Shown piece by piece: positions 27,569 to 33,521 of a DNA stretch of 64,000 bases (position 1 is its first letter; each line of letters opens with the position of its first letter). Origin of the DNA: a phage. The stretch lies in NCBI GenBank assembly GCA_036253055.1, contig GCA_036253055.1_4124.1, one strand, 5' to 3'. The notes below the pieces were generated by a model. It did no database searches. It was given only the letters and a program-made list of their open reading frames with translations, and was not told the origin of the DNA. A program made the position numbers and the translations under genes.

Positions 27569-27910
27569 TTAATACTCAATAATGTGTTCTTCATAATCAC
27601 CATTAGGCTCCTGTTTAGATTCTTTCATTAGTACTATCATCTTATGTACTAATGGCATAGGGAACTCTAAATCCCATACTAATGATTCCTGGAAGTATTC
27701 CTCTGGTGATAAAGTACTTAAATCTTCAATGTCAATGTGTTCGTACATATTATTTTCGTAATTAGCAAAAGAGATATATAAACCTCCTGTTAAACTGTAA
27801 GTAACTGTGAATGGTTTACCTTTGTAGTCCATTACATCTTTACATAGACTACTTTTAACGTATATATTTTCATACGATATGTATACCCTGAGTTGAATTT
27901 TAGTTTTCAT
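27569..27910 (-). CDS. Family-A short-form paralog
   Basis: Core SPEEYFQESLVWD. Confidence 0.65.
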   Translation of the reverse strand: MKTKIQLRVYISYENIYVKSSLCKDVMDYKGKPFTVTYSLTGGLYISFANYENNMYEHIDIEDLSTLSPEEYFQESLVWDLEFPMPLVHKMIVLMKESKQEPNGDYEEHIIEY

Positions 27911-28160
27911 TTTTATATTTCTTCGCTTTCTGAGTTTTGGAATTAATCAATTCAATTAAAGTAATTAAGTACAACTTCAAATAATAATCTTGTTCATTCG
28001 TACCTAATGATACAAATAACTTATGCTCATAAATTAATACCTGTTTCACTACAAAGGGACACTTAATCCTCTGTATAGGTTTAAGTAAATGATAGTACTT
28101 ATTAAATCTATGATACATTTCTAATTCTGTCAGTACTTTCATATTAAACACATACTCCAT
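27900..28160 (-). CDS. Family-B paralog
   Basis: Motif SLGTNEQDYYLKLYL. Confidence 0.55.
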   Translation of the reverse strand: MEYVFNMKVLTELEMYHRFNKYYHLLKPIQRIKCPFVVKQVLIYEHKLFVSLGTNEQDYYLKLYLITLIELINSKTQKAKKYKNEN

Positions 28161-28365
28161 TAGCAGTAGCAGTACTTAAAGCACTCAAATACCTCTGTAC
28201 GGCTTGCTCTTGATGATCTGTACCTAAAAGTATATACACCCATAATTCATTGTAGTGTACATCTTCTGTATAAGGGTTGTTGTAACTTTTTGATAATATA
28301 GCATCAAATTCAGATGCATAATCCCTTGTGAACTTAAACATATCTTGTTGTGTTATGATTCTCAT
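28144..28365 (-). CDS. Family-B paralog
   Basis: Motif LLGTDHQEQAVQRYL. Confidence 0.6.
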   Translation of the reverse strand: MRIITQQDMFKFTRDYASEFDAILSKSYNNPYTEDVHYNELWVYILLGTDHQEQAVQRYLSALSTATANGVCV

Positions 28366-28577
28366 AACTTTTCCTGTATAAGCTTCTTAAGTATTTCTAT
28401 GTGTGAATTAACAGTTCTTTCTTGATGCTGTGTTCCTAAGAGTGTCAGTACTATCATCTCTGAACGCAAAAGATTTTTTTCAAGTTCACTTATATCAGTT
28501 CTTGAATCAAGTGCCATATATTTGTGATTATTCTTCCTGAATAGTGCCAAGTACTCTTGATTTGATATTATCTTCAT
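28362..28577 (-). CDS. Family-B paralog
   Basis: Motif LLGTQHQERTVNSHI. Confidence 0.6.
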   Translation of the reverse strand: MKIISNQEYLALFRKNNHKYMALDSRTDISELEKNLLRSEMIVLTLLGTQHQERTVNSHIEILKKLIQEKL

Positions 28578-28789
28578 AGTTTACTTTGAATTTCCATTAA
28601 AAGTGCTCTAATATGCTCATTGACAAATCTCTCTTGGGAATCTGTGTCTAGGGTGAGAAGCATTCTTAATTCTGAACCTCTGATGGTATATTCTAAATCA
28701 TTCTTTGATTCTCGCATAAGTTTCTGAAAGGATGAGAAGTGTAATCCCATGAGTTCAATGTATTCTGCTGTTCCTAGTGGTTTTGGCAT
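28574..28789 (-). CDS. Family-B paralog
   Basis: Motif TLDTDSQERFVNEHI. Confidence 0.6.
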   Translation of the reverse strand: MPKPLGTAEYIELMGLHFSSFQKLMRESKNDLEYTIRGSELRMLLTLDTDSQERFVNEHIRALLMEIQSKL

Positions 28790-29001
28790 TTTAGTTCAAT
28801 CGCTCGTTTAAGTGTATTAATATAATCATTAATATTGCATTCTTGATAGTTAGTCCCTAGTGTAGCTTGAACATAGATTTCATTTCTCTTAATAATTTTA
28901 TCCATATCTGGTATATCTGATGTGTTAATAACAAACAACTTCAAAAACAATCCATTTATAATTGTTAGGTATTCTTCGTCGGTAATCATTCGCATTTGCA
29001 T
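28774..29001 (-). CDS. Family-B paralog
   Basis: Motif TLGTNYQECNINDYI. Confidence 0.6.
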   Translation of the reverse strand: MQMRMITDEEYLTIINGLFLKLFVINTSDIPDMDKIIKRNEIYVQATLGTNYQECNINDYINTLKRAIELKCQNH

Positions 29002-29207
29002 CTTCTCAGTACTGATTCTTTAAGTTCATCAATGTAGTACTCTACATATTCTTCTTGTAGGTTTGTTCCGAGATGTAACAGTACTCTTAAATCTGCTCTC
29101 AGTACTTCTTTATCATCTTCATCTATATCAGACAGTGTTATGTTTAAGAATTTACTTGAACTCTCTATAAGTAATATTACTGAATCACCTTTGCTTAAAA
29201 TTTTCAT
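28986..29207 (-). CDS. Family-B paralog
   Basis: Motif HLGTNLQEEYVEYYI. Confidence 0.6.
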   Translation of the reverse strand: MKILSKGDSVILLIESSSKFLNITLSDIDEDDKEVLRADLRVLLHLGTNLQEEYVEYYIDELKESVLRRCKCE

Positions 29208-29415
29208 AATCTCTTTTTGCTTTCCTCGCCAAAAGGTACATATACGATTCTTCGTATTGTGCTTGGTAGTTTGTGTTTAAGAGTCGAAACAACTTCTGTT
29301 CTGCTAGAACTAGTTGCTTATCTTCATAACAACGATAGCGTATCAACTTTTTGTATTCGATGTTGATTACATCCATTACTATAAGCCCATGTTCATCATC
29401 TGTCAAGTGTTTCAT
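29185..29415 (-). CDS. Family-B paralog
   Basis: Motif LLNTNYQAQYEESYM. Confidence 0.55.
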   Translation of the reverse strand: MKHLTDDEHGLIVMDVINIEYKKLIRYRCYEDKQLVLAEQKLFRLLNTNYQAQYEESYMYLLARKAKRDYENFKQR

Positions 29416-29641
29416 GTATCTTTTCCTTAATAGTGATTTTAAGAGATTTAATTATACGTTCAACGTGATACTCCTGCCTATCAGTTCCAAGAAGGTATGG
29501 TAGTGCTTGGAATAGAGCTTCCGCATTCTTTTCCTCTGGGGTTTGGTTTGGGTTGTGAGGAAGTTGATTTGTATATCTCTTGGCACTAACTAATCTCTCG
29601 ACGTATTCATTATATGTTAAGTATATCATTTCATTTTGCAT
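29396..29641 (-). CDS. Family-B paralog
   Basis: Motif LLGTDRQEYHVERII. Confidence 0.6.
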   Translation of the reverse strand: MQNEMIYLTYNEYVERLVSAKRYTNQLPHNPNQTPEEKNAEALFQALPYLLGTDRQEYHVERIIKSLKITIKEKIHETLDR

Positions 29642-31910: not shown

Positions 31911-32065
31911 TTACATTTATCCCTTATTAGATTTGTGAGTGCAACTATGTGTTCATGGACATAAAAATTCTGATGAGAAGTTCCAAGAAAGTACAGCATC
32001 CATCCCTCACTCTGCTCGACTTTTAGTTTAGTATCGAGTTGGTCAGATATGTTAATGAAAACCAT
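31907..32065 (-). CDS. Family-B paralog (52 aa, below track cutoff)
   Basis: Not in track; ORF MVFINISDQL...YFLGTSHQNFYVHEHIVALTNLIRDKCK; stop/start overlaps with neighbours. Confidence 0.5.
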   Translation of the reverse strand: MVFINISDQLDTKLKVEQSEGWMLYFLGTSHQNFYVHEHIVALTNLIRDKCK

Positions 32066-32289
32066 TAGTTCTTTTCCTTTCTTTCTATTTGTTTCATAAG
32101 AACATTGATATACTCACCCGCAAACCTATTCTGATACTGCGTCCCCATGAATTCCAACATCCATACTTCAGCAACCTTTTCTTCAATTTCAGTCCATTGT
32201 AAGTACATCATAGTGAAGTAAATGGTGTTCTCTTTTTTTCTGGCACTCTTAGCACGGGCCTCGTATTCAAAGTTATTAATGATGTTCAT
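32065..32289 (-). CDS. Family-B paralog
   Basis: Motif FMGTQYQNRFAGEYI. Confidence 0.6.
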   Translation of the reverse strand: MNIINNFEYEARAKSARKKENTIYFTMMYLQWTEIEEKVAEVWMLEFMGTQYQNRFAGEYINVLMKQIERKEKN

Positions 32290-32503
32290 TACATTTGTCC
32301 ATTATGTAATTAGTGAGTGCAACGATGTGCTCATGAACATAGCCTTCTTGGAAGTTAGTCCCCAGTACAGCCAACATGCGAATCTCGGTGGTGTTTATCC
32401 TGTGTTCCCTTATAGATAAACATTCTTTTTGTGGAAGTGTAAAATATTTGTTTATTACAGCAATGATAATTTTATTCTTCTCTATATTACTTAAATGTTT
32501 CAT
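32276..32503 (-). CDS. Family-B paralog
   Basis: Motif VLGTNFQEGYVHEHI. Confidence 0.6.
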   Translation of the reverse strand: MKHLSNIEKNKIIIAVINKYFTLPQKECLSIREHRINTTEIRMLAVLGTNFQEGYVHEHIVALTNYIMDKCNEHH

Positions 32504-32715
32504 AGTTTGCTCCTGACGTATTTCTCAAGAGATGACAAATACTTTTCCTCATAATACTCCTGATAGTCTGTTCCCAAGAATGCACCCAAAAGTATTTCAT
32601 TTTCCAATACCTCGGCTAAGTTTAAATCAGAAGTCTCTTCGTATATTATGAGGATTTCAAGTTGTCTGGCAGCGATGCGTTCAGTATATTGATATGATTT
32701 TTCTAGAATAATCAT
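32500..32715 (-). CDS. Family-B paralog
   Basis: Motif FLGTDYQEYYEEKYL. Confidence 0.6.
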   Translation of the reverse strand: MIILEKSYQYTERIAARQLEILIIYEETSDLNLAEVLENEILLGAFLGTDYQEYYEEKYLSSLEKYVRSKL

Positions 32716-32924
32716 AGTTTACTCTTAATGTGGTTCTGAAGTGCAATAAAGTATTCTCCTACATAATACTCCTGAAAGTCTGTATCCAAAAATGCACCCA
32801 TAAGTAAATCCTTCTCCATTACCCTTGATAAGTTAAGATCTGCATTTGAAAGGTATATAAGTAATATTTCAGCCTGGACAGATTTAAAACGTTTCTTATA
32901 TTCTTCAGGTGTTAATATAATCAT
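32712..32924 (-). CDS. Family-B paralog
   Basis: Motif FLDTDFQEYYVGEYF. Confidence 0.6.
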   Translation of the reverse strand: MIILTPEEYKKRFKSVQAEILLIYLSNADLNLSRVMEKDLLMGAFLDTDFQEYYVGEYFIALQNHIKSKL

Positions 32925-33130
32925 AGTTTACTCTTAATATCTTCTATTAAAAATCGAATCCAATCTTGAACATACTCTTCCTGATGGTTTGTGTTCAGTA
33001 CAGCCAACATACGGATCTCTGCTCTTGCAACTTCAATTTCAGTTTTAGGAAGGTCTTTGCTGATATCCACCATTAAGTCCATGTATTTCAAGATAAGACC
33101 GTATGATTGGGTTCGTGTTATAGTTTTCAT
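32921..33130 (-). CDS. Family-B paralog
   Basis: Motif VLNTNHQEEYVQDWI. Confidence 0.6.
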   Translation of the reverse strand: MKTITRTQSYGLILKYMDLMVDISKDLPKTEIEVARAEIRMLAVLNTNHQEEYVQDWIRFLIEDIKSKL

Positions 33131-33327
33131 TGTTTCCTCGTGGACAAAATTTCATTTTTCAATGTATCCACATATTTCGTTACCCATGCATCCTGATAGT
33201 TAGTTCCCAATGTAATCAAAAGGTATAACTCCATTCGTTCTACGTGTGAGTCTGTATTATAAATCTTTGTGAAGTTTTTACGTAACAGTGCTTGATATTC
33301 TTTTTCGGTTAATTTACGCATTTTCAT
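33127..33327 (-). CDS. Family-B paralog
   Basis: Motif TLGTNYQDAWVTKYV. Confidence 0.6.
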   Translation of the reverse strand: MKMRKLTEKEYQALLRKNFTKIYNTDSHVERMELYLLITLGTNYQDAWVTKYVDTLKNEILSTRKQ

Positions 33328-33521
33328 AGTTTACTCGTTACATCTTCAATTAAATACCAAATCCAATCCTTGACATACCTTTCCTGATAGTTAGTCCCAA
33401 TGAATAGTGCCATAATTAATTCACGCTTATAGGCAATACCACGGTCATGTGACTTATACATTATCATAGCCATGTTATTGATAAGTCTTTCGTGGTGTTC
33501 TGCTTGAGTTAAAATACGCAT
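33324..33521 (-). CDS. Family-B paralog (first gene of array)
   Basis: Motif FIGTNYQERYVKDWI; start moved to ATG 33521 (SD AAGGGAG); promoter just upstream. Confidence 0.6.
   Translation of the reverse strand: MRILTQAEHHERLINNMAMIMYKSHDRGIAYKRELIMALFIGTNYQERYVKDWIWYLIEDVTSKL

Follow-up and report, generated by a model that had tools for sequence, protein, structure and literature searches.

Our analysis of a 64,000-nt stretch of phage DNA (GenBank assembly GCA_036253055.1, contig GCA_036253055.1_4124.1; referred to below as the window) revealed an array of 26 head-to-tail paralogous genes of the PHROG 4148 family on the minus strand at positions 27900–33521, identified by open reading frames (ORFs), alignment and profile matches. 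Comparison with related phages indicates that this is an old family whose members are individually maintained, and not a recent gene accordion under measurable positive selection. We regard this anatomical and evolutionary description of the array as close to certain. With regard to function we favor, at a probability of roughly 0.4, a repertoire of early cytoplasmic binders that would serve host takeover or counter-defense.

The array region is 94.9% identical to that of the Asteriusvirus jumbo coliphage 121Q across 86% of the region length; for G17 and Sharanji, the identity is 88.5% across 100% of it. By these matches the window is assigned to an Asteriusvirus (121Q/G17/PBECO4-like) jumbo coliphage. 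The array occupies about one tenth of the window, which corresponds to roughly 1.6% of a 350-kb genome.

Organization of the array

The list of ORFs in the window contains 26 consecutive minus-strand ORFs of 52–97 amino acids (aa) that span 27900–33551. With family-consistent starts, the encoded proteins have a length of 52–90 aa, and the first gene starts with the ATG at 33521 rather than at the start of the longer ORF at 33551, because sequence conservation among relatives begins exactly at 33521. This agrees with the upper limit of the array in an initial annotation that had been made from the sequence alone. All 26 members score between E 1e-18 and 1e-27 against a profile built from the array set and there is no internal intergenic space, confirming the uninterrupted head-to-tail arrangement described in that annotation. 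When a six-frame translation of the window was searched with the array profile, nothing else below 1e-5 was detected beyond five extra copies outside the array, which bring the family to 31 members in total.

The ATGA-type overlaps noted initially are present at 11 of the 25 junctions when family-consistent starts are used, and the other junctions extend from overlaps of up to 23 nt to a gap of 1 nt. A recognizable Shine-Dalgarno sequence was found at about half of the array starts, and the remaining ones probably rely on translational coupling. One truncated member of 52 aa (31907–32065, minus strand) matches profile positions 16–73 and lacks the first third of the domain, including helices 1 and 2 of the fold described below. 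Its listing as a genuine member in the initial annotation was correct, as same-length orthologs are present in G17 (96%) and PBECO4 (94%); it is absent from 121Q.

The paralogs are divergent and conserved copy by copy

Paralogs in the window share on average 25% identity (range 10–49%), with neighbors slightly more alike (28.6% at distance 1 versus 24.7% at a distance of at least 8). Positional orthologs are 60–100% identical across phages. In comparisons with five relatives (121Q, G17, PBECO4, Ec-M-J and a metagenomic contig), most array positions have collinear reciprocal-best-hit orthologs, and synonymous divergence between positional orthologs reaches 0.6–1. The pooled ratio of nonsynonymous to synonymous substitution rates (dN/dS) of the array orthologs is 0.24–0.37 (medians 0.25–0.42), compared to 0.24–0.33 for flanking non-family genes analyzed by the same method. 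Because the orthologs are collinear and their pooled dN/dS resembles that of the flanking genes, each copy is under purifying selection of a strength ordinary for the accessory region, and the diversity of the family is ancient. Ongoing selection for variant diversity, as suggested in the initial annotation, is not borne out by these values.

The initial annotation had named frame-disrupting indels in most copies as a sign of non-coding repeats. None was found, since all 26 reading frames are intact, and together with dN/dS values below 1 this rules out non-coding repeats or pseudogenes. A recent gene-accordion amplification was likewise ruled out, based on the low mean identity of the copies, their maximum of 49%, and their separate collinear orthologs. 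The member at 28144–28365 gave dN/dS values of 1.17 versus G17, 3.02 versus PBECO4 and 2.65 versus the metagenomic relative, in each case with few substitutions. The protein encoded at 28144–28365 also lacks the usual C-terminal I-x-x-K ending.

The number of contiguous copies differs among the phages, with 26 in the window, 23 in 121Q, 29 each in G17 and PBECO4, 26 in Ec-M-J and 20 in the metagenomic relative; window members 6, 8 and 14 have no counterpart in 121Q. Along the array, identity to 121Q swings from 100% to 62–79% and back, and the same genes are 94–99% identical to G17. The array block is a recombinational mosaic of alternating 121Q-like and G17-like blocks. Some positions carry deeply divergent alleles, e.g., member 17, which is 97% identical to its ortholog in G17 and 45% to that in Ec-M-J. 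Overall, the array represents a clean case of a tandem family that has long been maintained without homogenization.

Sequence signature and predicted fold

The signature L-G-T-N-Y-Q-E-x-x-V proposed in the initial annotation is present in its core and looser than written. In the alignment of the 26 members T alone is invariant, followed by Q (25 of 26), G (22) and L (20), and the remaining positions are less constrained, with N in 14 members (plus D in seven), Y in 13, E in 16 and V in 17. An AlphaFold2 model computed with 28 paralogs as alignment predicts four helices at residues 8–17, 19–27, 33–47 and 54–71 (predicted local distance difference test, pLDDT, 97.3; predicted template modeling score, pTM, 0.83), in agreement with the small helical bundle that had been expected. 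In this model, a beta-bridge from residue 4 (“L-T” of the N-terminal motif) to residue 51 (Thr of G-T-N-x-Q) joins both conserved motifs, suggesting that the M-x-x-L-T-x-x-E-Y segment and the L-G-T-(N/D)-x-Q turn form one structural clasp.

Helix 4 carries conserved residues with heptad-like spacing (Y/F-V-x-x-Y/W-I-x-x-L-x-x-x-I), which, judging from their periodicity, probably constitute its buried face. The same periodicity suggests that conservation falls on the buried heptad-like positions and on the N-terminal/GT(N/D)xQ clasp, and that exposed positions vary freely. A per-site analysis of the kind proposed initially showed both the conserved core and a variable stripe: substitutions within positional orthogroups peak on helix 4 at positions i, i+1, i+4, i+5, i+8 and i+12 after the conserved turn (profile columns 54, 55, 58, 59, 62, 66, 67 and 69), and the interleaved columns are conserved. 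The array proteins, of about 70 aa each, are soluble and hydrophilic, with a grand average of hydropathy that is negative or about zero, and 11 of the 26 are free of Cys. Their isoelectric points (pI) range from 4.4 to 9.8, 14 of them lying below 7; this spread and the exposed variation fit one scaffold with many surfaces.

Searches of PDB and viral models revealed no significant structural neighbor outside the phage clade, with BFVD returning only paralogs from the same phages, and a profile search of PDB sequences gave 0 matches. Likewise, nothing was found in Pfam (ten proteins, E≤1) or NCBIfam (28 members), and the PADLOC defense models gave only isolated single-member matches at E≥6e-4 for the 28 members scanned. 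The profile search against small phage-protein families that the initial annotation had recommended was productive: six scanned members match phrog_4148, a family listed with function unknown, with E values of 1e-10 to 1.8e-23 over profile positions 1–70/74. The label “DUF3885 domain-containing protein” of one UniRef homolog was disregarded, as no Pfam scan reproduces it. Taken as modeled, the four-helix domain is strongly supported as a fold with no solved relative, at very high model confidence.

The array borders the direct terminal repeat

When the window is mapped to phages whose genome ends have been determined, a direct terminal repeat of ~20 kb falls at about positions 33619–53700. In fEgEco12, the terminal repeat has a length of 20,993 bp, as confirmed by restriction digests (PMC13070987). 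Window position 33600 corresponds to position 21012 of fEgEco12, whose first array gene, g057, starts at 21091, and the start of the right repeat copy of fEgEco12 maps near 53.7 kb of the window. The repeat annotated in Ec-M-J (1–21525) ends ~100 bp ahead of the first array gene of that phage. By this mapping to fEgEco12 and Ec-M-J, the inner boundary of the repeat would lie at 33619/33620 (no strand), ~100 bp upstream of the first array gene, so that the array adjoins the repeat and is not part of it. GC content changes across the boundary from 0.30–0.36 to 0.37–0.41, with the higher values on the repeat side. Nearly all window genes between 1 and 58 kb are on the minus strand, and the array is co-directional with the repeat genes and transcribed inward. 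There is strong support that, of the transcription units in the unique genome, the array comes first, next to the left direct terminal repeat.

As related phages have their ~20-kb terminal repeat in the stretch that corresponds to 33619–53700, the repeat seems to have been collapsed in the assembly of the window. About 1.9 kb at 52112–54044 contain no ORF of at least 60 aa, and the predicted physical left genome end (the repeat start at ~53.7 kb according to the fEgEco12 mapping) falls inside this gap. The gap also includes, at 52884–52982, about 12 tandem copies of an 8-bp unit (TAGCCGTC), and neither a tRNA nor an Rfam family was detected in it.

Candidate promoters and terminators

A candidate sigma-70-type promoter (TTGACT-16-TATTAT, matching 10 of 12 consensus positions) is located at 33552–33579 on the minus strand, about 30 nt upstream of the ATG at 33521. 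Phages 121Q, G17 and Ec-M-J share the upstream sequence of the window; the promoter site is the same in 121Q and Ec-M-J, and G17 has TAAAAT. PBECO4 and the metagenomic relative have unrelated upstream DNA, yet carry TTGACA-17-TATGAT (11/12) at the same distance from the first ATG. The candidate is thus supported by its retention in two non-homologous upstream contexts. The initial annotation had postulated a single promoter at this site. The site exists and is conserved comparatively; that it is the only one cannot be proven from sequence, as a further 11/12 consensus match lies inside the array at 29406–29378, in coding sequence whose surrounding DNA is invariant among close relatives.

Altogether, the window contains 36 near-consensus sigma-70 sites, 30 on the minus (coding) strand and 6 on the plus strand. 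Twelve of the 14 perfect 12/12 sites are found in the repeat just upstream of the array, roughly one per small gene; these have the form TTGACA-16/17-TATAAT and are distributed over the minus strand from 35.7 to 53.4 kb. Phages of this group encode their own sigma factor (PMC7247149), which fits a switch from host to phage promoters, and we infer a T4-like program in which such sigma-70 promoters would be used early.

Within the repeat, upstream of the array promoter, a hairpin with a 13-bp stem followed by a T-run (AAAAAAGTCAAGG...CCTTGACTTTTTT; 33690–33745, minus strand) was read from the sequence and is part of the minimum free energy fold of 33600–33775 (−41.2 kcal/mol, z −2.2). It is conserved in 121Q, G17 and Ec-M-J, was not called by a simple terminator scan because its loop is long, and may act as an intrinsic terminator of the last terminal-repeat gene. 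Inside the array, the terminator scan gave one weak match and nothing else. At the distal end, a minus-strand gene of 113 aa (27569–27910; phrog_13866, listed with function unknown; no match to the array family) overlaps the last array gene by 11 nt. The array has the same distal neighbor in 121Q, G17, Ec-M-J and the metagenomic contig, and the next strong promoter-like site is located beyond this gene at 27536–27508; the 113-aa gene is probably the last one of the array transcription unit.

Distribution of the family

A profile search run exhaustively against 1.84 billion representative proteins detected only 88 clusters, all with a length of 48–122 aa. The close clusters stem from ~350-kb contigs that are mostly labeled as E. 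coli or Escherichia phage. Ten distant clusters were looked up, one of which has named members (Klebsiella phages RaK2, K64-1, KP13-7 and RCIP0023) and nine of which come from metagenomic contigs. In RaK2, a 24.5-kb stretch contains 12 members that occur singly, in pairs or in triplets, two of which lie within proteins of 115–121 aa. All of the RaK2 members keep the L-G-T-(N/D)-x-Q ... Y-I-x-x-L core, and there is no one-to-one orthology between RaK2 and coliphage copies (best identities 26–50%). A tblastn search of all phage records with the family consensus gave 4 weak matches and is too insensitive to map the distribution. These results strongly support that the family is confined to RaK2-like jumbo phages of enterobacteria, and that its organization as a single large block characterizes the coliphage lineage.

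Possible functions of the array

In the reading that we favor, host sigma-70 RNA polymerase would transcribe the block early into one polycistronic message, whose translation would be coupled through overlapping stop and start codons. The products would be cytoplasmic single-domain binders on a common scaffold, each with an exposed surface of its own that would differ chiefly in the exposed stripe of the last helix beside the conserved turn, and each would engage a different host or host-defense component during takeover. The “binding scaffold with many specificities” proposed in the initial annotation thus remains a reasonable hypothesis. Every sequenced relative keeps the family copy by copy, which argues that it is doing something. 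The array orthologs in phage phAPEC6 are gp467c–gp489c, and the published virion proteome of this phage (62 proteins) lists no gp4xx (PMC7247149), pointing to a non-structural role. If the proteins are early binders, a single locus would provide ~25 naturally diversified, very small and confidently folded probes against E. coli targets, and the array could help to explain host-range differences among therapeutic jumbo coliphages. A more specific version, in which each of the 20–29 variants on this undescribed fold neutralizes a different host-defense or host-factor allele, appears doubtful to us. If true, it would be the largest anti-defense/takeover paralog set known in any phage, and cassette exchange between co-infecting relatives, seen as the mosaic, would tune host range.

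Several points weigh against an early binder repertoire. The dN/dS of the array is no higher than that of flanking accessory genes and carries no gene-level signature of an arms race; the sole member above 1, at 28144–28365, exceeds it in three of five comparisons and rests on few changes. Burial and exposure were read from sequence periodicity and not from model coordinates. Matches of the 10/12 type, such as the array promoter, occur at chance level in this AT-rich DNA (59 found versus 51 expected in 11 kb), and the match at 29406–29378 could be a second promoter. A search of the literature returned no transcriptome, other expression data or functional study for any Asteriusvirus, and both the timing and the polycistronic message are therefore deduced. 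Mass spectrometry of virions easily misses small proteins, so that absence from the proteome is weak evidence. Finally, we found no partner, phenotype or homology to a characterized takeover or anti-defense protein.

The copies might also be largely dispensable, genome-filling duplicates without a function per copy, tolerated by a larger capsid as in the capsid/genome “ratchet” of Hua et al. (2017), who read the array of 121Q simply as a tandem duplication that adds to genome expansion (PMC5646251), a view echoed in the phAPEC6 paper. Copy number indeed varies from 20 to 29 among viable phages, single genes such as members 6, 8 and 14 are missing in 121Q, and several other paralog families in the window indicate that duplication is common in this genome. 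Neutral filler would, however, be expected to decay or homogenize, whereas 26 of 26 frames are intact despite divergence to ~25% identity, and the collinear orthologs at each position, with dN/dS of about 0.3, reflect purifying selection; we therefore consider mere filling unlikely. A defined intracellular assembly with homo- or hetero-oligomeric subunits, for which operon order and equal stoichiometry would matter, could account for the strict collinearity across phages and the tight coupling via overlapping stop and start codons, and all members share a conserved polar/aromatic patch (T, N/D, Q, E, Y), which could serve as a common site of contact. Such a complex is hard to reconcile with copy numbers of 20–29 and the free loss or replacement of single members, and the array proteins were not found in virions, so that we give it little credence.

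Classical helix-turn-helix (HTH) proteins of the lambda Cro/repressor type carry an “L-G-(V/I/T)-x-x-Q/S” turn, which the array motif superficially resembles, a lead rather than a test. The L-G-T-N-x-Q turn and the following helix could thus belong to nucleic-acid-binding regulators whose specificity is set by the variable stripe, and the fastest-varying orthologous positions do map to the first part of the post-turn helix, on its exposed face, where a recognition helix would read bases. Nevertheless, no HTH family was found in Pfam (ten proteins, E≤1) or NCBIfam (28 members), the helices before and after the turn have 15 and 18 residues compared to roughly 7 and 9 in the canonical motif, and hydrophobic residues downstream of the Gly are not spaced as in an HTH. 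The proteins also lack a net basic character, with 14 of 26 below pI 7 and values down to 4.4. As structure comparison did not reveal a tri-helical HTH fold either, an HTH regulator was rejected on fold, sequence and charge, and we consider a nucleic-acid-binding role very unlikely.

Relation to previously described gene arrays

The existence of the array has already been published, and the family is catalogued as PHROG 4148. Hua et al. (2017) mentioned a tandem array in 121Q (mBio 8:e01579-17; PMC5646251), which is probably the array studied here because no other family reaches this size (31 members in the window). The 121Q array represents the same family at the same locus, with gp319–gp341 as positional orthologs that are mostly 93–100% identical; in contrast to the “very similar” wording of Hua et al., the copies in the window average 25% identity to each other. 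In the papers on Sharanji, fEgEco12 and phAPEC6, the array receives no more than one sentence, and a literature search for analogous small-protein arrays revealed nothing directly relevant. To this, our analysis contributes the position of the array relative to the terminal repeat, comparative evidence in favor of its promoter, the anatomy of the operon, a confidently predicted orphan fold, the distribution in the RaK2 clade, the fusions, and the ancient divergence under ordinary purifying selection.

Numerous small genes with a takeover role or no assigned function, read by the host polymerase, are found at the genome ends of other large lytic phages, such as the host-takeover module in the terminal redundancy of SPO1 and the pre-early genes in the left terminal repeat of T5. 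As in these phages, small genes with sigma-70-type promoters are located here at a genome end with a long direct terminal repeat; location at the repeat, inward transcription and host sigma-70-type promoters were all observed. In SPO1 and T5, the blocks are composed of unrelated genes, often with their own promoters, a description that fits the repeat region of the window (34–53 kb). The array, in contrast, lies just outside the repeat and comprises a single family with one apparent promoter, and its early timing is presumptive. None of the early proteins of SPO1 or T5 was found to resemble the array family in sequence or fold.

Gene accordions of the poxvirus type consist of recent, near-identical copies of antagonist genes that expand and collapse under host pressure. 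The array shares with them tandem copies of accessory genes and copy-number differences between close relatives; it differs in that its copies are 10–49% identical and have their own conserved orthologs, with dN/dS of about 0.3. In Bacillus phage G, zinc-ribbon genes have undergone a lineage-specific expansion to about 35 copies (Iyer et al. 2021, Viruses 13:63; PMC7824862), an expansion that Hua et al. name in the same sentence as 121Q (PMC5646251). In both cases a jumbo phage encodes tens of copies of one very small domain whose function is only guessed; for the zinc ribbons, a role in DNA binding or as transcription factors was proposed (PMC7824862). However, a zinc ribbon contrasts with the four-helix domain without metal ligands described here, and phage and host are unrelated.

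Dispersed copies, a fusion protein and other features of the window

The further copies listed in the initial annotation were recovered with profile E values of 1.8e-6 to 1.5e-12. Two of them are located on the minus strand at 12271–12462 (1.7e-11) and 12440–12661 (1.8e-6), the latter matching the profile in its C-terminal half only and phrog_4148 with 8e-4. Two more, also on the minus strand, lie at 25246–25512 (8.5e-7, match in the C-terminal half) and 25482–25697 (1.5e-12), and have gp346 and gp345 as 121Q orthologs. The fifth forms the N-terminus of a 269-aa fusion protein (25992–26801, minus strand), in which a family module (residues 1–63; profile 3.8e-9, phrog_4148 1.2e-10) is joined to a domain of ~200 aa. 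The module is thus linked to other sequence both here and, within the 115–121-aa proteins, in RaK2.

In a model of the fusion protein, the module has a pLDDT of 90–98 and the C-terminal domain stays below 60, at around 40–60 (single-sequence prediction, unreliable in that part). Residues 88–259 share about 40% identity with RaK2 ORF380, a stand-alone protein, and with its counterpart in K64-1, neither of which has an assigned function. Homolog searches with the C-terminal domain returned only itself, and no other protein encoded in the window is paralogous to this domain. The fusion gene was detected in EC.P1 and UB and in no other phage record; 121Q lacks it at the corresponding position. An adjoining gene of 116 aa (25992–27260 region), which encodes six Cys and is a BLAST paralog of the 106-aa gene at 25675–25995, is likewise absent at the site in 121Q.

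Lineage-specific expansions make up most of the window. On the minus strand, an eight-gene tandem array of small paralogs (60–81 aa) at 54440–56011 and a three-gene tandem array (59–61 aa) at 56623–57187 show no BLAST relation to the array family, and two further paralog families comprise eight members of 147–167 aa (7648–16555) and six members of 54–141 aa (10760–18231). A plus-strand tandem family of ~380–430 aa occupies 58191–64000, with seven BLAST-linked ORFs, about five of them full-length and the last running off the window; judged by size, its products could be the counterparts of the ~40-kDa “DNA condensation” virion proteins gp003–010 of phAPEC6.

No tRNA or known RNA was detected in the window. 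A segment of ~180 bp at ~51511–51690 shares about 85% nucleotide identity with unrelated phages; the matches listed include two Campylobacter phages as well as JLBYU50, in which it forms part of a gene annotated as “DNA polymerase III alpha”. It probably explains most of the ~100 further matching records beyond the jumbo-phage clade and may represent a small element, either mobile or widely shared. In the repeat region of the metagenomic relative (L002, 2044–2298), a small gene matches the ParE-like toxin family PF24732, the sole annotated domain among about 60 neighboring genes of this contig.

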